Position numbers and translations under genes: made by a program | Part shown: piece after piece, positions 38 to 16,251 of the stretch | Layout: every line of letters starts with the position of its first letter | How positions within the stretch are numbered: position 1 is the first letter of the stretch | Notes under the pieces: model-generated | What the model was told of the DNA's origin: nothing | What the model saw: the letters and a program-made list of their open reading frames with translations, nothing else | Databases searched by the model: none | Source of the DNA: a virus | Length of the DNA: 18,257 bases | Direction: 5' to 3' (one strand) | Virus genome (UHGV): UHGV-0068637

Positions 38-3000
38 TTATTCTTCGCTTCCGGTCAACTGACTGATAAGCGCTTCAAGTTTTGCTATCCGCTCATCCAT
101 TGCAGTAACGTCAGCTTTCAGGCTTGCGTTAACCTCATTCATTGCGGCAACGTTAGCTTTTAAGTTTGCGTTCTCCTCTTCCATTACAGCAACGCTGGCT
201 TTCAGGCTTGCGTTCTCCTCTTCCAGTTCGGTGACGCGATCATCCGTTTCGCGTGCCACCTGGACAAGTAAACCAGTAACCGCCGCATAGTCAACGCTGA
301 GGCACTTCATTTCCTCGCGTAAGATGTTGCCGTCAGTTGTTGGCCCTTGTAGCTCCTTGCCGTAAAGAGTGGTAAACGCTATCGCTTCAGGCAGCGCGTC
401 CATTACTTCCTGTGCAATAACACCAGCGTAAGGAAGGCCGTCATCTTTAAACGTGTAGGTATACCCGTTCATCTTACGGATGGATCCGGTGGCGTCACCT
501 ATGACCTTAATGTTGTCTTTAAGGCTCTGGTCAGAAGTTTGATACAGCGTCTTACATGTAAGATCGCCGTTAAAGTCAAATTTTCTGTTACCTGCTGCAT
601 CTTCCTGAGCATAGAACATGTATTGTTTGCTGTTACCAACCTCAAAAACGCTTTCCCTTCCGCTTTCACCCCATACCCTTACACTCCACGACTGCGCCGA
701 GGTGTCAGAGTTCCTTAAAAGAAGGCGCGGGCCGCTATCGCTGTTTTTAAGGATAACGTCGCCTTTTGCGGTTACGTCACTGACTGTGGTTAGCGTATTA
801 ACAGACACATCCTGATTTCTTCCTGAAACAACAATCTGACTCCATGCCGTCCAATTACCGTTCTCACAATAGCGAACGTATATTTGCTTCGTGTCTGTGC
901 CGACAAGTGTTTGTATGTTTGTGTAGTCTGTATCACTAATCTTGCGAATGGATTCTACACGCAACAAGAAGTTACCGCCTACACCGCTAGGCTTGTTGGC
1001 AATAGTGTTACCACCGCCTGCACTTGCGCATTGATAGTATTTAACAGAACCTTTATCAGATGCCTTAATAACAACGTTGTTAAGATCAATCTCCTGGTTT
1101 TCAATAGGTTGCGGATAGATAGGCCCGTACATACCTGCACTGAATGTGGCAAGGGCGGAAAACGTCGTTTGACCACCTACCGTCACACCGCTATCAAGCA
1201 CTGCTTGCGTGATAACTTTGCTGTTTGTTTTGTGATCGGGATTGTTACCAAAATACAGATCACCGCTGCCATCAATACCGAGGTATTTTTGAACAACGCT
1301 ATCAACCTTGAAGCCAATGGATAGGTTTTCAGAATACCCTGTACGCGTTAAAAGTAACGGTGTATGCTGTTTACCGCTGATTTTTAACGTGTTCTCCGTA
1401 GTTTCCGTGTTGTCGTTGGTGAACTCAGCTGTACGAGATGTTACTTTATATAGGATCTTTGCGCTGTTCGCCTGGATGCTTCCATCATGACGAACAACAA
1501 AATCACCTGTAGCCGTGCCGTTAGTGGTATTTGCCCGAATGCGGACTTCGCCACCCTCTTCGGAATTGGTAGGCGCCCAGATAACACCGCGTTCAGACTG
1601 GTCCTCATTCTGGAACCATAAATGGGCGGTTCCACTTTTTGAACGCAGATAGATCGACGGTGTTCCTTTAAGGATCGTCAGGTCGCCAGTCATGGTGTCA
1701 CCACCTTTTTTAACCTGAGCATCGTTGGTTACGTTGCCAAGTCCAACGTCAGCTTTAGACGGCTTGTATTTGGTTCCGTATAGAGTGTTGATCTGGAAAG
1801 TACCATCTTCAAGCGATCTGTCGTTACCAGAGAAAATCCTGACATTACCTGTGCCGTAGTCGATATTGATCGCAGACCACGTATCGCCGCACCGCGAGAA
1901 TACACCAGAACCGTGGCTGTGAAATGTGGCTGTGCTACCTTTTGGCTTACCGGATCTCCAGAAACACCCACCTTGCGCTTTCAGAGCTTTCAGTAAATCC
2001 TGATCGGTCATGTAACCCGTTGTGTCAGACCACGTTATCCCAGAACCACCAACACCGTAATTGCCTTTAAGCAGGGCATCTTGAAGGCCCAAATCTGCCT
2101 TAGTCGGCTTGTTTTCCTGGTCGTAAATCCTTATTGCAGGGCTTTCGATATATCCCTCTGGGGCGGTTTGTTGTTCGACATAGCCTTCTGGAATGTACAG
2201 TTCAGTCATGCCAGTCTGTGCCAGCACAGCAACCCTTGCGTCCTTAATGAATGCCCGCTGATAGCCCCAGACTTCAAAATATCCATCGCCCGGAACAATG
2301 CCGTAACGCATTTTGTTTTGTGCGTCCAGCCCTGCAGATCCGAGGCGGCGAACACCCAAAAACTTAGTTATGTTTGCACTGGTTATTCCGCCTGCAGTGG
2401 TGTAATTGCGAGCGGAGATCTCGATAAAGTCAATATTGCCGTAAGTCTTGCCGTAGTTACATGCGTTAGTAATCATTAGCGTCAGGTGGCAGTCACTAGC
2501 GCCCGGATCGGTCATTTTTGCGATCTTCACATAACGGGCATAATCAAAGGTATTGATAGGCCATTTACATTGAACCAATGCGTTGTTAGACCTTACTATC
2601 TGATTCAGATATTCTTGCGCCCTGTTCTCTGATGTTTTGGCTTTGGTTTCGCTTGTTTTTGCTGCCGTTTCGCTTGCCTTAGCGTTGGTTTCTGATGTTT
2701 TCGCGGCGGTGGCGGAGTTTGCTGCCGCTGTTTTTGATGCTGCTGCCGCGTTTTTGTCTGATTCTGTTTTTTGAGCGTTGGCAGTTGATTTCGCCGTTTC
2801 TGCGCGAATGTTGGTAAGAAGTTGTTCCATTTGACCATCACCGCCGAACTCATTCCACCACTCTACGGCGGAGGCGATTTCTGTTTCTTTGCTCTGGTAG
2901 TAACGCAGGGTTTCAGCTACGTCCTGAGCAAGCCCATCAACTGAGATCGAATCAGATAGCAGGATGCTAAATTTTGTCCCAGCAGGGATTGCGGGGTTAG

Positions 3001-3184
3001 CTGCTGGCGTCACTGACAGTTCAGTGCCGCTTTTAATTTCCGTGATGGTAAAGATCTGCACAGGATTGCCAACAGCAATGAGCGTGCAACCTACACGAAT
3101 AAGGGAAAGCGGCGCGGAGAAGTTTGTGCCCGTGCCTTTAACAGTGTTGCCATTGATGGCAATTGTTCCAGTTGTGTAAATCAT
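38..3184 (-). CDS. Side tail fibre protein with C-terminal intramolecular chaperone (peptidase S74-like) domain
   Basis: 1048-aa ORF, ATG at 3182-3184 with GGAG upstream. The Ala/Lys/Thr-rich 'AAKTSETNAKASETAAKTSETKAKTSE' region resembles lambda Stf / T4 fibre collar repeats. The C-terminal ~150 aa carries the 'TSDQSLKDNIKVI...GYTYTFKDD...GVIAQEV...LPEA...SVDY' signature typical of self-cleaving chaperone domains (endosialidase / T5 pb1 type), followed by a heptad coiled coil (ENASLKASVAVMEEENANLKANV). Confidence 0.8.
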   Translation of the reverse strand: MIYTTGTIAINGNTVKGTGTNFSAPLSLIRVGCTLIAVGNPVQIFTITEIKSGTELSVTPAANPAIPAGTKFSILLSDSISVDGLAQDVAETLRYYQSKETEIASAVEWWNEFGGDGQMEQLLTNIRAETAKSTANAQKTESDKNAAAASKTAAANSATAAKTSETNAKASETAAKTSETKAKTSENRAQEYLNQIVRSNNALVQCKWPINTFDYARYVKIAKMTDPGASDCHLTLMITNACNYGKTYGNIDFIEISARNYTTAGGITSANITKFLGVRRLGSAGLDAQNKMRYGIVPGDGYFEVWGYQRAFIKDARVAVLAQTGMTELYIPEGYVEQQTAPEGYIESPAIRIYDQENKPTKADLGLQDALLKGNYGVGGSGITWSDTTGYMTDQDLLKALKAQGGCFWRSGKPKGSTATFHSHGSGVFSRCGDTWSAINIDYGTGNVRIFSGNDRSLEDGTFQINTLYGTKYKPSKADVGLGNVTNDAQVKKGGDTMTGDLTILKGTPSIYLRSKSGTAHLWFQNEDQSERGVIWAPTNSEEGGEVRIRANTTNGTATGDFVVRHDGSIQANSAKILYKVTSRTAEFTNDNTETTENTLKISGKQHTPLLLTRTGYSENLSIGFKVDSVVQKYLGIDGSGDLYFGNNPDHKTNSKVITQAVLDSGVTVGGQTTFSALATFSAGMYGPIYPQPIENQEIDLNNVVIKASDKGSVKYYQCASAGGGNTIANKPSGVGGNFLLRVESIRKISDTDYTNIQTLVGTDTKQIYVRYCENGNWTAWSQIVVSGRNQDVSVNTLTTVSDVTAKGDVILKNSDSGPRLLLRNSDTSAQSWSVRVWGESGRESVFEVGNSKQYMFYAQEDAAGNRKFDFNGDLTCKTLYQTSDQSLKDNIKVIGDATGSIRKMNGYTYTFKDDGLPYAGVIAQEVMDALPEAIAFTTLYGKELQGPTTDGNILREEMKCLSVDYAAVTGLLVQVARETDDRVTELEEENASLKASVAVMEEENANLKANVAAMNEVNASLKADVTAMDERIAKLEALISQLTGSEE

Positions 3185-3361
3185 CGCAATGACTCCATTA
3201 TGTTAATTAACGGAATAATTCTACCATTTTGTGATCTGTGTTGCATTTTCTGCTTACACAAAATGTATTTGTTGATCTGTGTCAATATACGAAATGTGGT
3301 TTTGTCGGATATTTAAGCCACCGGGTGAACCGGATTAACCAACAAGAATGAGGGTTCAAAA
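3185..3361. promoter_or_regulatory. Divergent intergenic control region between tail fibre (-) and lipoprotein (+) genes
   Basis: 177-bp non-coding gap. Contains a 9-bp inverted repeat CATTTTGTG (3225-3233) / CACAAAATG (3257-3265), a 10-bp direct repeat TGATCTGTGT (3232-3241 and 3273-3282), and a GAGGG Shine-Dalgarno 7 nt before the ATG at 3362. No exact -35/-10 pair could be fixed by eye. Confidence 0.4.
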
Positions 3362-11008: not shown

Positions 11009-11061
11009 TTTATCACCTTGTCATTTTGTGATCGCCATCACGCTAAATCATACCAAAACGG

Positions 11062-11093
11062 TTGATCGCGTTTTTTACAATATGTATATTGTA
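11062..11093 (+). promoter_or_regulatory. Candidate sigma70 promoter with palindromic operator for cassette A
   Basis: TTGATC (11062-11067), 17-bp spacer, TATATT (11085-11090). The perfect inverted repeat TACAATAT-gt-ATATTGTA (11076-11093) overlaps the -10. Confidence 0.4.
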
Positions 11094-11136
11094 CTCAAAA
11101 GGAAGCATGGTTAACAAAATGGCGCGGAGGTGTGAC

Positions 11137-11292
11137 ATGGCTGATAAGGTGTGGAGGTTGACGGTGTTCCTTAGTGATGGCAGGGAAATGACTGTGGCCC
11201 TGTATAAAGATGAAGGCGAGGCACTTACTGACGCGCTATTACTCGCTGAAGACGAACGCGTTTTGGGGTACAGGATCGAACCTGTCAAATGA
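11137..11292 (+). CDS. Hypothetical small acidic protein (cassette A, ORF1)
   Basis: 51-aa ORF, GGAGG 6 nt upstream of the ATG. First gene after the candidate promoter. No recognisable family. Confidence 0.5.
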   Translation: MADKVWRLTVFLSDGREMTVALYKDEGEALTDALLLAEDERVLGYRIEPVK

Positions 11293-11307
11293 GGGTTATA
11301 ACAAAAA

Positions 11308-11661
11308 ATGGAAAAATACAGATTAGACGTGTGGACTGATAAATACGAATGGGAACGCATGGGGCTATTTGATACATATGAATCAGCGTGTGATGAAGGT
11401 AGTGAATTACTGCGCTGTTGGTCTAATGCTCGTTATTATTATGTTGTTCCAGTACAAGTACCGGATAAGGTGGAAGAGATGAACCCGAAAGATATTAACT
11501 TTAACGTCAATGTTGAATTTGCAGACTCTATGGATCAGGCTTGCCCTGGTGAAATACACGCAAAAGGTTTTCCGGCTGACGATCCAGAAGCAAAACGAGA
11601 ATACGAAAAAGCGGCAAAAGACTTCTGCATAGATAACCTGGGCTGTTTTAATGGCAAATAA
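11308..11661 (+). CDS. Hypothetical acidic Cys-containing protein (cassette A, ORF2)
   Basis: 117-aa ORF with protein-like composition, whereas the antisense frames are Phe/Cys/Ile-rich junk. Lies in an AT-rich region. RBS is weak. Confidence 0.55.
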   Translation: MEKYRLDVWTDKYEWERMGLFDTYESACDEGSELLRCWSNARYYYVVPVQVPDKVEEMNPKDINFNVNVEFADSMDQACPGEIHAKGFPADDPEAKREYEKAAKDFCIDNLGCFNGK

Positions 11662-11676
11662 ATAGTAGGCCAATAT

Positions 11677-11916
11677 ATGAAAATGATTGGTATTATAAAA
11701 CTCGTTGTTACATCTAACAAAAGGGAGGATTTTAATATAAAAGATAGATACCCATTATTCAAAACATCTTCTGGCAATTATTTTACTGTTGACAACTGTT
11801 TAAACTTTGTTCCGCTGACTGTGCTTGATATTTCTGGAGCAAGGGTGAAAGGGTACGGAACTGCTTGCGGTGATGATTTTGTGCCTGATATGCTATTTTT
11901 TGAAACGTGGGAATAA
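11677..11916 (+). CDS. Hypothetical protein (cassette A, ORF3)
   Basis: 79-aa ORF, weak RBS, start could be 11677 or 11683. No recognisable family. Confidence 0.45.
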   Translation: MKMIGIIKLVVTSNKREDFNIKDRYPLFKTSSGNYFTVDNCLNFVPLTVLDISGARVKGYGTACGDDFVPDMLFFETWE

Positions 11917-11921
11917 AAATC

Positions 11922-12188
11922 ATGGGGCGGCGCAATCACGGTGATTATGTGTACACGTTGAAACAGGCCGCCCGCCTCATCGGTTATCATGAGCACGAAT
12001 TTATTAATTTGCTGATTGAGCGCGGGATACTTTACCAGGTCTGTTTAACGCTGTACCCGAAAGCTAAATACCTACAGGAAAAGTTATTCATCATCATGAC
12101 GGATGAAAACCAGGTCAATCACTCATTCGTCACTGATAAAGGTGTCAACTATCTGCGCGATAACTTACAGGGCGGCAATTATGGATAA
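11922..12188 (+). CDS. Putative small helix-turn-helix DNA-binding protein (cassette A, ORF4)
   Basis: About 89 aa from the ATG at 11922 (the ORF track uses GTG at 11907). The N-terminal 'YTLKQAARLIGYHEHEFINLLIERGIL' has the pattern of an HTH recognition unit (excisionase / AlpA / MerR-like). Confidence 0.5.
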   Translation: MGRRNHGDYVYTLKQAARLIGYHEHEFINLLIERGILYQVCLTLYPKAKYLQEKLFIIMTDENQVNHSFVTDKGVNYLRDNLQGGNYG

Positions 12189-12252
12189 GGTTATCGAAAA
12201 TGTTTTGGTAGTGGCTGGCGCAATTGCCATCGTTTATGCCTTTATGAACTAA
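12181..12252 (+). CDS. Possible 23-aa hydrophobic peptide (cassette A, ORF5)
   Basis: MDKVIENVLVVAGAIAIVYAFMN. Overlaps the stop of ORF4. Very short and hand-called, so it may not be translated. Confidence 0.3.
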   Translation: MDKVIENVLVVAGAIAIVYAFMN

Positions 12253-12263
12253 TGGGGTGAATC

Positions 12264-12401
12264 ATGAAAATCGAAGTTTTAGCACTGATTGTAATGGGCT
12301 TGATTGTCTTCGGTGTTCACGCTGCTGGTTGGGACTGGGCGGCAATAGCAAACAACATGGCGCACGCTCACCCAATGAGTTTGCTGTATATTCACTACTA
12401 A
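12264..12401 (+). CDS. Small single-pass membrane peptide (cassette A, ORF6)
   Basis: 45-aa ORF, GGGGTGA RBS 4 nt upstream. The N-terminus 'IEVLALIVMGLIVFGV' is hydrophobic. A terminator follows directly. Confidence 0.45.
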   Translation: MKIEVLALIVMGLIVFGVHAAGWDWAAIANNMAHAHPMSLLYIHY

Positions 12402-12403
12402 CA

Positions 12404-12440
12404 AGAAAAACCCCGCGCGAAGCGGGGTTGTTATTATACG
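12404..12440. terminator. Bidirectional rho-independent terminator (near-identical copy of the 3614-3644 hairpin)
   Basis: CCCCGCGCGAAGCGGGGTTGTT is identical to 3618-3639. There are A/T runs on both sides, between the convergent stops at 12401 (+) and 12434 (-). Confidence 0.7.
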
Positions 12441-12631
12441 CCATCAACCAAAAATAAAACCTCCTTGCCTTCCCTGGATCTGCATCCCACATACCCGTCA
12501 CCAACATCATGAAGATACCAGGTATCGCCATTGTCAGCCTTTACAGTAAGGTCGTTGATCTCATAGTCGTCAAACAATGTAAAAGCGTCAGTTTTGTCAA
12601 CTACACAAGTCCCGTACATAACAACCTCCAT
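12434..12631 (-). CDS. Hypothetical 65-aa protein translationally coupled to M
   Basis: Its ATG (12629-12631) overlaps the TAA of the M-like gene (TAATG arrangement). Same strand as the tail genes, followed by a terminator. No recognisable family. Confidence 0.45.
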   Translation of the reverse strand: MEVVMYGTCVVDKTDAFTLFDDYEINDLTVKADNGDTWYLHDVGDGYVGCRSREGKEVLFLVDGV

Positions 12632-12984
12632 TAGCCAACAACTTGTTCAAACGTTGCGTTTAGCGTGTACACAGGCCCGTCCTTAGTCATACTCCAGCTA
12701 CGGCAAACAAAAAGCCTTTGCACGCCATCCATAGACGGCGACCAGTAAAAAGCCTCGACAGCGCCGCGCGCCCTCAAGAATGCTTCTGCCTGGATCGCCA
12801 CGTTTCCACCATCACCGCATCCTGCGCTACTGCCTTTAAAAACCAGGGTGTATTTATCAAGTAATGTGTTAATCCCTTTCGCCTGGCGCTGTTCATATCC
12901 ATCACCAAGTTTAATGACTGACACATTTGGTTCCCTGGTCACGCTGTAGCTTCTTTGTGGCGTCCATTTGAAAACTTCAGGCAT
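12631..12984 (-). CDS. M: Minor tail protein M-like
   Basis: 117-aa ORF with GGGGGA RBS. 'KLGDGYEQRQAKGIN', 'FYWSPSMDG', and the C-terminal 'TLNATFEQVVG' match lambda M ('RFGDGYSQRAPAGLN', 'FLWTPPYE', 'EFSAEFEQVVN'). Confidence 0.85.
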   Translation of the reverse strand: MPEVFKWTPQRSYSVTREPNVSVIKLGDGYEQRQAKGINTLLDKYTLVFKGSSAGCGDGGNVAIQAEAFLRARGAVEAFYWSPSMDGVQRLFVCRSWSMTKDGPVYTLNATFEQVVG

Positions 12985-13073
12985 GATTCCCCCTATAAGT
13001 TACATATTGCATACATCTTTACGCGCTTCTACGCGAAAAATTAGAACTTCGTCACAAGAATTATACCCAGTTT

Positions 13074-13112
13074 ACAAAATGGCTTCACACAGGACGTAAC
13101 AAGATGTATATA
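13074..13112 (+). promoter_or_regulatory. Candidate promoter for cassette B carrying the conserved ACAAAATGGCTTCAC motif
   Basis: ACAAAATGGCTTCAC at 13074-13088 is identical to 16293-16307. -35-like TTCACA (13084-13089), 17-bp spacer, -10-like TATATA (13107-13112). Confidence 0.35.
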
Positions 13113-13154
13113 GGAAGCAAGAAGAGAAAGCAGTACCAACAAAGGAGGGGCATC

Positions 13155-13310
13155 ATGAAACGCTATGTAGTGGTAATGCTGAACAACGCATTCGAACAGG
13201 TGGAAGTAGCGATCGTTAAAGGCTTCGATGACGCATTCAAATACGGTCAATTCATGATGAATGCAAAAGAAGATGAATACCGTGATTTCTTCCTGAAAGT
13301 GGTCAGCTAA
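13155..13310 (+). CDS. Hypothetical small protein (cassette B, ORF1)
   Basis: 51-aa ORF with a very strong RBS (AAAGGAGGGG) 4 nt before the ATG. No recognisable family. Confidence 0.55.
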   Translation: MKRYVVVMLNNAFEQVEVAIVKGFDDAFKYGQFMMNAKEDEYRDFFLKVVS

Positions 13311-13328
13311 TGGATTGTGGGGTGGGTT

Positions 13329-13583
13329 ATGAAATTGGTGGCGATTGGTAAAAACCTGAAAGCACAGAAAAACGCACAGGACCGGATCATCAAAAAGGGC
13401 AAGGCCTTATTAAACGCTTTCCTGAAAAAAGAGGCCAACCCCAAAAAATTACGCGATGGCTACGGTTATAAATTTGACATCAACCCCGATTGGCGGTTAT
13501 TCAGCGAAGATCTAAAGATGTGGTTAATTATTGACCATCTGGAATACAACCGCCACTGTGGAGTAAAAGGGGCGCATAAATGA
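13329..13583 (+). CDS. Hypothetical lysine-rich basic protein (cassette B, ORF2)
   Basis: 84 aa from the ATG at 13329 (the ORF track uses GTG at 13317). GGGGTGGG upstream. The N-terminal half is highly basic. Confidence 0.5.
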   Translation: MKLVAIGKNLKAQKNAQDRIIKKGKALLNAFLKKEANPKKLRDGYGYKFDINPDWRLFSEDLKMWLIIDHLEYNRHCGVKGAHK

Positions 13584-13591
13584 GGTGAAAT

Positions 13592-13684
13592 ATGGATGAC
13601 GATAAATTCACCTGGCGGGAGATCTGGAGCATCTGGCAGGTGATGTTTGCTCGCAGCTATATAGCAAGAAACGGAAGATTGTGA
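13592..13684 (+). CDS. Possible 30-aa peptide (cassette B, ORF3)
   Basis: MDDDKFTWREIWSIWQVMFARSYIARNGRL. GAGGTGA RBS that overlaps the ORF2 stop. Short and hand-called. Confidence 0.35.
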   Translation: MDDDKFTWREIWSIWQVMFARSYIARNGRL

Positions 13685-13702
13685 TTTGCGGAGGAAAATA
13701 AA

Positions 13703-13879
13703 ATGAAAAACCCGGCAAATAAAAGCAACGTAAAACGTATGGCGTGGGTGCTAAAATATATGGATAGTAAAGGGGATACATATACATGCCCATTTTTCAG
13801 GTATACTGACGCGGTATTTGCCAGAAGTGTACACGGAGGGAAAATTGAAAGAGGGTATACAAGTTTTGAGAATAACTAA
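13703..13879 (+). CDS. Hypothetical 58-aa protein (cassette B, ORF4)
   Basis: GGAGG RBS 8 nt upstream. Followed directly by a terminator. Confidence 0.5.
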   Translation: MKNPANKSNVKRMAWVLKYMDSKGDTYTCPFFRYTDAVFARSVHGGKIERGYTSFENN

Positions 13880-13884
13880 AAGAT

Positions 13885-13918
13885 AACCCCGGCATTGTAC
13901 CGGGGTTTTGTTTATTTG
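13885..13918. terminator. Bidirectional rho-independent terminator (cassette B / H gene convergent)
   Basis: Hairpin AACCCCGG-CATTGTA-CCGGGGTT followed by TTTTGTTTATTT. On the minus strand a T-rich tract follows the stem. Directly abuts the H stop at 13912-13914. Confidence 0.75.
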
Positions 13919-16251
13919 CGGCGAGGTTGCAACATTCCGCCAGGTCGTTGCGATTCCCTTGCCATCATTTTCATTGCTACGCGTTCCATTGTCTGTTCAA
14001 GCCTGCGACCGTCTTCGTCGCTAAATCCGTTTGTGGTCTGTACGGTGATGTTAACAGGCATATTGATGCCGCCACCATTGAAGAGATCGCGGCCAGGAAT
14101 AACCCTGCCATTTTCCCCAGGAATCATATACTGACGCCCGTTGCTCGTCTGGAATAACTCAGGAATCCCGTGTTCCCCTACGCGATACAGACTTCCACCA
14201 TTAACAGAACCACCATTATAACGTCCGCCGCCAAAAATTGACGTTGCCAGCGACATGATCGCAGAAAGTGCCGCAGCACCAGCCGCCGCCCAGCTACCAC
14301 CAGTTGACGCAGCCGTTGCCGCAGCCGCCGGGGCCGCCGCCGCAGCAATCTGACCTTGCGCCGCCACCGCGCCAGCCGTTGTACTTGCCTGGGTAGCCTT
14401 GCTTTGCGTTTCCATCATCAACTGATCTGCTATCCAGTTGGCGGCAATTTCTGATAGTTTGTTGCCAACGGTGTTAAGTATGCTACTTCCCAGGTTAGCA
14501 AAAACCTCGCTTAGTGATTGAGTACCGTTCAACAGGCCGGTAAGCGCATTACCCATGCCACCTTTTAGGCCACTGACACAAGCGCCGATCAGGCCGTTTG
14601 TGTCGCTCTGTGCCTGCCATTGTTCCCATTTCAGATCTCGGATCTGTTGCTCGTATTCCAATTGCGCCTGTCTCTGTTGCGCCTCTGTAGCGCCCAGGTC
14701 CAATAGCATTTGTTTTCTTACAGCCCATTCATTTTGCGCCTGCTTGATTGGGTCAATTTCTCCCTTAAGCTGGTCCATCGGGCTAACTATGTGGTCCCAT
14801 TTGTCGCGTAGCTCATCAACAGGGATCTGAGCTAATTCGTCTTTCAGTTCCTTGCCTATTCCTTTTTGCGCGGCCTTGTACTCAAGGAGGGTTATTTTGC
14901 CCTGGGCGAATGCAGCATCAATGGCCTTGCCGTTCTCCAGCGCTTTACGCATGGCGGCGGCGTCCTTGTTGTACTGGTCGGACACTTTTATACCTTCATC
15001 ACCAAGCCGATCAGCTTCGGATTTCTTTTGTTTTTTAGGTTTTTTCGGCTTACCAACTGGCTGATCGAATCCTGTGATCTTGCCATCGTCAGCCTCACCC
15101 TGTTTCTCCATGAACTCATCATATGCGGCGGTTGCGTTTTTAATGTCGTTTGCAAACGTCATTACTTTGCCAACGGTAGGGCCAAATTTCTTCTCGTTGT
15201 TGCTGTTTAGCTCTTCTTTGCGTTTGTCTACGATCTCCTTCATCCATTTGTAGCCATCCATTAGCGCCTTGATTGGCGTCACCATCCTGATGATTTCTTC
15301 CGCCACCTCGCCAGCTTTAACAGCAACATCGTCAAATATGTCGATGAACTCGCTACCAGCGGTTTTCAGTGTATTGAAACAGGTTGCGGCGAATTTTGCG
15401 CCTTTACCCAATCCCTCAACGCCACCAGTGATTAAGTCTATTGCTGTAACAACGCCGTCAGATATGCCGAAAAGATTATCAAGCTCTTCGACAACGCCCA
15501 TCATCTCAACTTTAAGCTCGTTGAAGGCTATGCCTGTTGTGCGCGGCAATTGTGCGAACTTCTCGTTTGTTTCCTGCGTGGAGGCCTGGATCGCGTTGAG
15601 CATCCTTTCAGCCGTGATCTTACCGTCCAGCATTTCAGCGCGGAACTGACCCATAGATAACCCCATTTGGCGGGCCATTTCCTGTACGATTGTTGGGGTA
15701 TTGTCGCGTATTGAGTTAAATTCTTCCGCCTGCAACACGCCAGCATCAATAGCCTGGCGGAACTGGCGCATGGAGTTAGATAACTGTTCCGCAGACACGC
15801 CGCCCAGACTACCAAGTTTTTGTAGCGTGCTAACCAGGTTGAGCACCTGGCCTTCCGTAGCGGATGTATTTTTTAGCGATATAGCAAGCCCTTGCCACAG
15901 GTCGCCAGTATCCTTGAGGCTTTGGCCTGTTTCTTTTGATATATCTTTCAGTCTGTTGAAAACACGTTCCGTGGCCTCCGCTTCACCTGTGAGCAGTTTG
16001 ATTTTTACGCGAAGCATTTTTGCTTGCTCCGCCATGTCAATAAACTGGCGCACAGCCTCCGCAGCAAGTAATAGATGGATAACCCTGGACAGTGCTTTGA
16101 TTGAAGTCTTAAGCGTGTTTACCTGGCGGTCAGCGCGTTTTGCGCCACGCTCGATGCTGTCAAATGCCTGGTCTGCCTGTCGTTGAGCAACGAGAAGTTG
16201 ACCAGTTTTTGCATCAACTTCGTAATAGATTGTACCTAAACTGGTTGCCAT
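13912..16251 (-). CDS. H: Tail length tape-measure protein (H-like)
   Basis: 779-aa ORF with GAGGT RBS. The N-terminal two-thirds is alpha-helical and rich in charged residues. There is a Gly/Ala-rich hydrophobic stretch near the C-terminus (AAQGQIAAAAAPAAAATAAS...SIFGGG) and a terminal 'GGSLYRVGEHGIPELF' region like lambda H. It sits directly upstream of M. Confidence 0.85.
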   Translation of the reverse strand: MATSLGTIYYEVDAKTGQLLVAQRQADQAFDSIERGAKRADRQVNTLKTSIKALSRVIHLLLAAEAVRQFIDMAEQAKMLRVKIKLLTGEAEATERVFNRLKDISKETGQSLKDTGDLWQGLAISLKNTSATEGQVLNLVSTLQKLGSLGGVSAEQLSNSMRQFRQAIDAGVLQAEEFNSIRDNTPTIVQEMARQMGLSMGQFRAEMLDGKITAERMLNAIQASTQETNEKFAQLPRTTGIAFNELKVEMMGVVEELDNLFGISDGVVTAIDLITGGVEGLGKGAKFAATCFNTLKTAGSEFIDIFDDVAVKAGEVAEEIIRMVTPIKALMDGYKWMKEIVDKRKEELNSNNEKKFGPTVGKVMTFANDIKNATAAYDEFMEKQGEADDGKITGFDQPVGKPKKPKKQKKSEADRLGDEGIKVSDQYNKDAAAMRKALENGKAIDAAFAQGKITLLEYKAAQKGIGKELKDELAQIPVDELRDKWDHIVSPMDQLKGEIDPIKQAQNEWAVRKQMLLDLGATEAQQRQAQLEYEQQIRDLKWEQWQAQSDTNGLIGACVSGLKGGMGNALTGLLNGTQSLSEVFANLGSSILNTVGNKLSEIAANWIADQLMMETQSKATQASTTAGAVAAQGQIAAAAAPAAAATAASTGGSWAAAGAAALSAIMSLATSIFGGGRYNGGSVNGGSLYRVGEHGIPELFQTSNGRQYMIPGENGRVIPGRDLFNGGGINMPVNITVQTTNGFSDEDGRRLEQTMERVAMKMMARESQRPGGMLQPRRK

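Follow-up and report, generated by a model that had tools for sequence, protein, structure and literature searches.

An antisense accessory cassette with a predicted RelE/ParE-type protein between tail genes M and H of mEp021-group coliphages

We analyzed an 18,257-nucleotide (nt) stretch of the virus genome UHGV-0068637 (the window), in which the minus-strand, lambda-type tail module is interrupted, between the minor tail protein gene M and the tape-measure gene H, by four small open reading frames (ORF1 to ORF4) on the plus strand, here called cassette B. This cassette is very probably a phage moron, and the comparisons reported below point to an accessory unit, antisense to late transcription, that would be transcribed independently and built around one constant gene, ORF2, whose 84-amino acid (aa) product we assign with moderate confidence to a RelE/ParE-type fold in a family of its own. 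Judged by its sequence, the region comes from a member of the mEp021/"mEpimmI" group of temperate Escherichia coli phages: it is 85–94% identical to mEp554, mEp010, mEp044, mEp013, mEp515, mEp021 and phage MagusPhagus. The name mEpimmI denotes a recently described group that contains the mEp021-type phages (PMC11893012). Furthermore, the cassette was matched in prophages of 35 of 5,426 complete E. coli genomes.

From the start of M at 12984 to the end of the H stop codon at 13912, the gap measures 927 nt, and the guanine–cytosine (GC) content of the cassette is 41.9%, compared with 50.5% for H and 49.4% for M. The flanking genes are readily identified, the counterparts of M being annotated as a minor tail protein in mEp554, mEp021 and MagusPhagus. 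The initial annotation of this DNA, made from the letters alone, had described an extra ~0.9 kb between M and H with plus-strand ORFs of 51, 84, 30 and 58 aa, all of which were recovered at the same places, and its description of the 84-aa product as strongly basic agrees with an isoelectric point (pI) of 9.9.

For comparison, loci were collected by searches with ORF2 (45 loci) and M (80 loci) and from annotated genomes (13 loci), and pairwise ratios of nonsynonymous to synonymous substitution rates (dN/dS) were computed over 13–39 distinct alleles per gene, with the structural gene M as a yardstick. The ratios were 0.05 for ORF1, 0.08 for ORF2, 0.055 for ORF3 and 0.14 for ORF4, next to 0.08 for M, and the variable sites cluster at the third codon positions of the plus-strand frames; these two features together mark all four small ORFs as real, presumably translated genes. 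The frames are also kept open, in 50 of 50 loci for ORF1, 54 of 55 for ORF2 and 31 of 34 for ORF3, and in each of the 26 loci that possess ORF4, as a 58- or a 56-aa form. The shortness of the ORFs, three of which have no family match beyond PHROGs, could suggest a non-coding spacer or the decayed remnant of a structural gene, with ORFs arising by chance. This reading is excluded by the codon-level purifying selection, and we give it a minimal chance: the frames are intact, ORF2 and ORF1 have Pfam or PHROG matches, the fold of ORF2 is predicted confidently and no similarity to tail proteins is apparent. The initial annotation had named two outcomes that would speak against it, homology to a degenerate structural gene and a plus strand that is not translated; no structural-gene homology was found, and the selection at codon level argues for translation.

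The product of ORF2 matches the Pfam family PF24732, "ParE-like toxin domain" (E value 7e-12, 45.6 bits with a cut-off of 24.4), as well as phrog_1525, and its RefSeq name is already "ParE family toxin-like protein". Thus, the remark that none of the four products is recognisable by eye does not extend to profile searches, by which ORF2 is recognised. All 21 family members tested match PF24732 alone. An AlphaFold model of ORF2, built from 18 sequences, reached a predicted local distance difference test score (pLDDT) of 90.6, with the elements in the order strand–strand–helix–strand–strand–strand–helix, in keeping with the characteristic fold of the RelE/ParE superfamily (N-terminal helix or helices packed on a 3–4-stranded antiparallel sheet). 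In a Foldseek comparison of the model, a check that had been proposed at the outset, the best solved-structure matches were RelE/ParE-type toxins, albeit in weak agreement (YoeB, E value 0.1, probability 0.93–0.95), and the good matches in a viral structure library were "ParE-like" proteins of jumbo phages. Searches of PDB chains with the ORF2 sequence and the family profile yielded nothing meaningful, and an hhalign comparison of the family profile with E. coli YoeB, for which an approximate sequence was used, gave a probability of 1.5%. Within the family, K40, L41 and R56 do not vary and W65, H70 and N74 hardly do, and in the model these residues sit on the sheet and the C-terminal helix, the elements that bear the active-site residues in RelE-type RNases. 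Taken together, these data make a RelE/ParE-type fold likely for ORF2, and both the fold and the family assignment held through the comparisons. The proposal that the basic 84-aa product might bind nucleic acid gains from this, because RelE/ParE toxins target the ribosome and mRNA or gyrase, so that a nucleic-acid-related role would be reasonable.

ORF2 is itself a mosaic. Its alleles fall into three classes, with ~100–90%, 80% and 63% identity to the allele in the window, which differ chiefly at residues 47–52 and 66–78 and combine freely with a near-invariant ORF1; the synonymous rate (dS) is 0.66 for ORF2, higher than the 0.42 of ORF1. This pattern suggests intragenic recombination or a diversifying exchange of one surface of the protein.

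If the family name is taken at face value, ORF2 would be a ParE-type gyrase poison that keeps the host or a competing phage from replicating its DNA, and ORF1 would be a short antitoxin resembling PaaA2. The name ParE_like in Pfam and the RefSeq name "ParE family toxin-like protein" agree with this, and PaaA2, which is a short antitoxin without a DNA-binding domain, offers a precedent. However, ParE has a long two-helix hairpin, whereas the ORF2 model has a single N-terminal helix and a C-terminal helix in a RelE-like order, and the sharply conserved polar set K40, R56, H70 and N74 is more typical of an enzyme. The lysogens that lack ORF1, described below, weigh against this reading as well, and we consider it very improbable.

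To assess how constant the cassette is, we relied on the loci collected with M, a sample that is unbiased as to cassette content. All 30 close relatives in it (M at least 83% identical) have extra DNA here, never shorter than 681 nt; ORF2 is present in 30 of 30 and ORF1 in 28, and in each of the 27 that have a readable junction, 681–1393 nt separate H from M. The comparison set of more distant lambda-like phages (M 66–71% identical) comprises 49 loci with a readable H/M junction. The view that H and M are adjacent in lambda-type tail modules, from which the initial annotation had started, is accurate for 24 of these, in which the two genes abut (gap of −4 to +2 nt); the remaining junctions hold unrelated small inserts of ~165–490 nt on either strand. 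Because distant phages carry such unrelated inserts at this place, the H/M junction appears to be a recurrent landing site. The inserts of the distant phages (loci L088–L137, ~2500–3000) contain a 70–79-aa gene on the same strand, a 75–79-aa gene on the opposite strand or a 132-aa gene on the opposite strand, with a GC fraction of 0.41–0.46.

The smallest form of the cassette, 685 nt in length, consists of ORF1, ORF2 and the terminator and is devoid of ORF3. Downstream of ORF2, the content is swapped among relatives, with about six small genes exchanged in addition to ORF3 and ORF4; the products encoded there include an acidic protein of 70 aa, one of 49 aa, a 95-aa membrane protein, HNH endonucleases and zinc-ribbon proteins. 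The cassette is thus mosaic. The notion of a self-contained opposite-strand unit holds insofar as an extra cassette is present, but the unit is not a fixed one: ORF2 is constant, and ORF3 and ORF4 are exchanged independently of each other. Homologues of ORF4 were found only within the mEp021 phage group, with or without ORF3 beside them. Neither ORF3 nor ORF4 had a match in Pfam, PHROGs, NCBIfam, PADLOC or the PDB; overall, NCBIfam returned zero matches and PADLOC a single weak, non-significant one (E value 0.05). In some relatives, HNH homing-endonuclease-like genes were noticed in two settings, namely, between M and the leader on the opposite strand (locus L019, ~1670–2300, and also mEp515) and downstream of ORF2 (locus L056, ~2740–3250).

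ORF1 matches phrog_29810 only; it has no match in Pfam, NCBIfam, PADLOC or the PDB and no antitoxin or DNA-binding signature, and its AlphaFold model, a single long helix with a predicted template modelling score (pTM) of 0.42, was uninformative and was set aside. The gene is confined to the mEp021 phage group, always adjoins ORF2 and was never seen without it, and the adjacency of the two is kept in 52 of 54 loci. Such a gene pair could be a canonical type II toxin–antitoxin module, in which a labile ORF1 product, in need of constant synthesis, neutralises ORF2 and which provides for prophage addiction or for abortive infection when a superinfecting phage shuts off host expression. In line with this possibility, the two small genes are co-oriented and lie 18 nt apart, the upstream product is acidic and has a strong ribosome-binding site, the downstream product is basic and has a weaker one, and the ORF2 family is both labelled ParE-like and predicted to have a RelE/ParE-type fold. 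Moreover, some annotators call the homologues in other phages HigB-like or "killer protein". Several observations nevertheless speak against it. In three cases, ORF1 is missing and an intact ORF2 lies directly behind the ribosome-binding site of ORF1, namely, in E. coli UMNK88, whose genome is complete, and in two IMG/VR contigs (L020 and L022), one of them from an isolate genome, so that lysogens tolerate ORF2 alone. ORF1 is dispensable and, thus, not a classical obligatory antitoxin. In addition, one identical ORF1 pairs with all three ORF2 allele classes, which are mutually 63–80% identical, and a search for co-variation of ORF1 variants with these classes found none. With no antitoxin signature in ORF1 and, as described next, no conserved partner of the family elsewhere, the classical toxin–antitoxin reading is weakened and, in our view, rather unlikely. 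That ORF1 binds ORF2 is possible, although we would lean toward doubting it.

Beyond the mEp021 group, an exhaustive hidden Markov model search of 1.84 billion representative proteins recovered only 10 clusters of the PF24732 family, a central member of which matches 48 phage records, from lytic and temperate phages alike. A search of 72,556 plasmids with ORF2 gave no match. Homologues at other genomic positions in other phages, which the initial annotation had recommended looking for, do exist: in lytic as well as temperate phages, they sit in co-directional arrays of early or accessory genes, where their neighbours include a T7-type RNA polymerase, a T7 gp0.4-like gene and lambda Kil, in early arrays of N4-like and jumbo phages, and directly before the lysis genes of Sortsne-like phages. 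An all-against-all comparison of the neighbours of distant homologues identified no shared partner, and PHROG scans of these neighbours returned families of unknown function only. Thus, with its phage-borne early arrays, no conserved partner and no plasmid match, PF24732 is distributed unlike a classical addiction module.

This distribution could also fit a non-toxic ORF2, one that acts as a ribosome- or antitoxin-binding decoy against host toxin–antitoxin defenses or as a small regulator and to which ORF1 is unrelated. The homologues lie among early genes of the anti-defense or host-takeover type, such as the T7 gp0.4-like gene, the T7-type RNA polymerase and lambda Kil; ORF2 is tolerated by lysogens in which ORF1 is missing; and no canonical catalytic motif can be aligned. 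On the other hand, strong purifying selection and the conservation of basic and histidine residues point to a specific site for catalysis or binding, and the searches made here turned up no example of such a decoy with the RelE/ParE fold. We regard a decoy or regulator as distinctly unlikely.

The features of the region are listed in Table 1.

Table 1. Features of cassette B and its surroundings in the window
Feature	Position	Strand	Basis or remark
M, minor tail protein, left flank	12631..12984	-	Pfam PF05939 Phage_min_tail, E value 4e-29
Leader/divergent control region	12985..13154	+	Invariant blocks, variable spacer of fixed length; low GC
Motif ACAA(G/T)(A/G)(A/T)(G/T)TATA (ACAAKRWKTATA), direct repeat D1, copies 45 nt apart	13054-13065, 13099-13110	+	
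Promoter-like site facing M, GTGAAG-17-TATAAT	13060..13088	-	Score 11.1
Candidate sigma-70 promoter TTCACA-17-TATATA	13084..13112	+	Best plus-strand site in the leader
Shine-Dalgarno sequence of ORF1, AAAGGAGGGG, 4 nt before the ATG	13141-13150	+	Read from the sequence
ORF1, 51 aa, acidic, pI 5.1	13155..13310	+	Purifying selection; phrog_29810
ORF2, 84 aa, basic, pI 9.9; constant cassette gene	13329..13583	+	PF24732; phrog_1525
ORF3, 30 aa, Trp-rich, variable accessory gene	13592..13684	+	dN/dS; own ribosome-binding site GAGGTGAAAT
ORF4, 58 aa, basic, variable accessory gene	13703..13879	+	dN/dS
Bidirectional intrinsic terminator AACCCCGG-N7-CCGGGGTT, then TTTGTTTATTT into the H stop (13912-13914)	13885-13907	both	
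H, tail tape-measure protein, 779 aa, right flank	13912..16251	-	RefSeq/GenBank annotation of relatives
65-aa gene directly downstream of M	12434-12631	-	phrog_3249; followed by the cassette A terminator
Cassette A, second opposite-strand unit	11009-12430		Between L and the 65-aa gene
Cassette A leader	11009-11140		
Cassette A bidirectional terminator	12409-12429	both	

Many gene callers extend ORF1 to a 68-aa form that starts at ATG 13104. This start was rejected: the leader contains indels that are not multiples of three, relatives have TTG, CTG or GTG in place of the ATG, and the codon falls within the −10 element of the candidate promoter. Two minus-strand ORFs, of 69 aa (13041..13250) and 61 aa (13608..13793), were also discarded, their variation tracking the codon phase of the plus strand. 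An Rfam scan of 12400–14100 found nothing relevant.

The leader was examined in an alignment of 46 distinct sequences. In this alignment, the hexamers TTCAC(A) and TGTATA of the plus-strand promoter candidate are near-invariant and the 17-nt spacer between them varies in sequence without indels. The candidate also aligns with a better site, TTGATC-17-TATATT (11062–11090), in the leader of cassette A, with which it has ACAAnATGTATAT in common. We infer that a conserved promoter of the sigma-70 type drives the cassette. The near-consensus ribosome-binding site that had been claimed for the first ORF is indeed present (AAAGGAGGGG), and it is kept as GGAGG or GGGGG in relatives. On the minus strand, the promoter-like site facing M has one of the six best scores that either strand of the window yields; all 46 sequences share its ATTATA, and its −35 element overlaps that of the cassette promoter in a back-to-back arrangement. 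Transcription of the tail genes beyond the insert might start anew at this site or, alternatively, the site might compete with the cassette promoter. A tandem TACGCG-N4-TACGCG in the M-proximal part of the leader (13020–13035) is near-invariant in relatives and, if the minus-strand promoter is real, would fall in the 5' untranslated region of M.

The window contains three occurrences of the motif ACAAKRWKTATA, where 0.05 would be expected. Apart from the two copies of the direct repeat, there is a third at 11077–11088, in the leader of cassette A; the motif always lies on the strand of the cassette and is conserved in relatives. A search of the initial 37 kb of mEp021, a stretch that contains the immunity region, gave no match to the motif, and it is therefore not the CI operator. 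It could serve some other regulator as an operator or belong to an unusual −10 region.

At the opposite end of the cassette, the strong hairpin terminator that had been described as abutting the H stop codon was scored as a terminator on both strands. Among the 28 distinct 3' ends compared, 27 have a GC-rich hairpin and a T-run directly before the H stop, and across relatives the hairpin occurs in three sequences with compensatory changes in the stem.

Cassette A, the second opposite-strand unit of the same tail operon, lies between L and the 65-aa gene that follows M, and its counterparts in relatives contain a KilAC antirepressor-like gene. The leaders of the two cassettes align and share ACAAnATGTATAT, and thus the cassettes seem to have paralogous and possibly co-regulated promoters. 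Because the terminator of cassette A follows the 65-aa gene, M and this gene form a short segment bracketed by two antisense cassettes. Separately from cassette B, the early region of mEp021 (locus L149, 15105–15377) carries gp23, which is annotated as "putative toxin-antitoxin system subunit".

The account that we favor, which as a whole we judge about as probable as its negation, joins these elements as follows. An accessory cassette would have entered the tail operon between H and M, where the TTCACA-17-TATATA promoter would drive ORF1 to ORF4, antisense to late transcription, and the hairpin at 13885–13907 would end the unit. As mEp021 encodes a Q-like late regulator, Q-antiterminated late transcripts are expected to cross the terminator and the cassette in antisense orientation during lytic growth; with late transcription entering from the other side, the cassette is probably expressed mainly while the late operon is off, either in the prophage or at an early stage of infection. 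ORF2 would be the fixed payload, a RelE-like effector on mRNA or translation, and that it acts as a ribonuclease is a tentative proposal, somewhat short of an even chance. This effector could serve the phage by controlling the gene expression of the host or of a competitor, or through a conditional abortive defense. ORF1, acidic, equipped with the stronger ribosome-binding site and located directly upstream, might be a lineage-specific partner that tempers ORF2, and ORF3 and ORF4 would be unrelated passengers in a swappable slot of the same transcription unit.

Several points weigh against parts of this account. No match was detected between ORF2 or its family and models or solved sequences of the canonical ParE, RelE, YoeB, YafQ and HigB proteins. 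The conserved residues of ORF2 may correspond to RelE R61, R81 and Y87, but this correspondence follows the order of secondary-structure elements and not a superposition, and the label chosen by the Pfam curators for PF24732 is ParE-like, not RelE-like. The absolute score of the TTCACA-17-TATATA site is moderate, and its −10 element does not have the conserved final T. A KilAC antirepressor-like gene in cassette A, the cassette with the paralogous promoter, is a poor fit to constitutive expression in the lysogen. Finally, the cassette goes undiscussed in the mEpimmI paper (PMC11893012), and neither gp67 nor gp68 is named there or in its supplements. A search of the literature on PF24732 and on the RefSeq protein accessions found nothing.

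A moron and a RelE/ParE-like protein are kinds already known, and ORF2 already bears a RefSeq label; the element as such is uncharacterised but unsurprising. What goes beyond the routine is that ORF2 is core to a whole phage group and that its family appears to be partner-independent and phage-specific, as well as the presence of two antisense cassettes with a promoter and a motif apparently in common in one tail operon. If ORF2 proves to be an active RelE-like effector, the mEp021 group would provide a simple system for finding out what a RelE/ParE branch does that is confined to phages and mostly lacks partners, these phages being common gut E. coli prophages in which natural variants with and without ORF1 exist. 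This bears on the question of how prophages can keep a potentially toxic gene as part of their core. Furthermore, the H/M junction can be viewed as a place in lambda-like tails where accessory genes land recurrently, and the promoter and motif common to the two antisense cassettes hint at co-regulated cargo for lysogenic conversion or defense.

Among known systems, PaaA2-ParE2 (PaaR-PaaA-ParE of E. coli O157:H7 prophages) differs from the ORF1-ORF2 pair in that there is no sequence similarity between them and no gene for a PaaR-like regulator in the cassette; ORF1 is not detectably related to PaaA2 and, as noted, can be dispensed with. To the RelE/ParE superfamily at large (RelE, YoeB, YafQ, HigB and ParE), ORF2 is similar in its small size, its basic character, the best solved-structure matches of its predicted fold and the small acidic gene directly upstream. 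It differs in having no sequence-level relation to the canonical families, one N-terminal helix instead of two, an upstream gene that is dispensable and bears no antitoxin signature, and a family that is restricted to phages and was not found in plasmids.

Phage morons were reportedly described by Juhala et al. in 2000, with HK97 gp15, lambda lom and lambda bor said to be examples. Like these, cassette B is an addition that separates two genes which adjoin each other in related phages, located in the tail-gene region, with a promoter-like site, a terminator, a GC content lower than that of its neighbours and a mosaic distribution. Unlike these, it is antisense to the late operon, its ORF2 is fixed in a whole phage group and not sporadic, and the tail operon houses one more cassette, with a paralogous promoter.

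T4 RegB is a phage endoribonuclease expressed from an early promoter that inactivates mRNAs; its fold is RelE/YoeB-like and no antitoxin is known for it (PMC3014915), which makes it a precedent for the favored account of ORF2. The members of PF24732 resemble it in their location in early arrays of lytic phages and in having no conserved partner. A bolder proposal, which we put forward as unlikely in its entirety, is that PF24732 represents a phage-specific, antitoxin-free RelE/ParE branch and a widespread counterpart of RegB, comprising small mRNA- or ribosome-directed nucleases with which lytic and temperate phages reprogram gene expression. In the mEp021 group, a member of this branch would have been captured as a core gene in an antisense tail moron, where it would have gained a 51-aa inhibitor, ORF1, and a promoter in common with a second cassette, both cassettes being switched together by a factor that recognises ACAAnnnnTATA.

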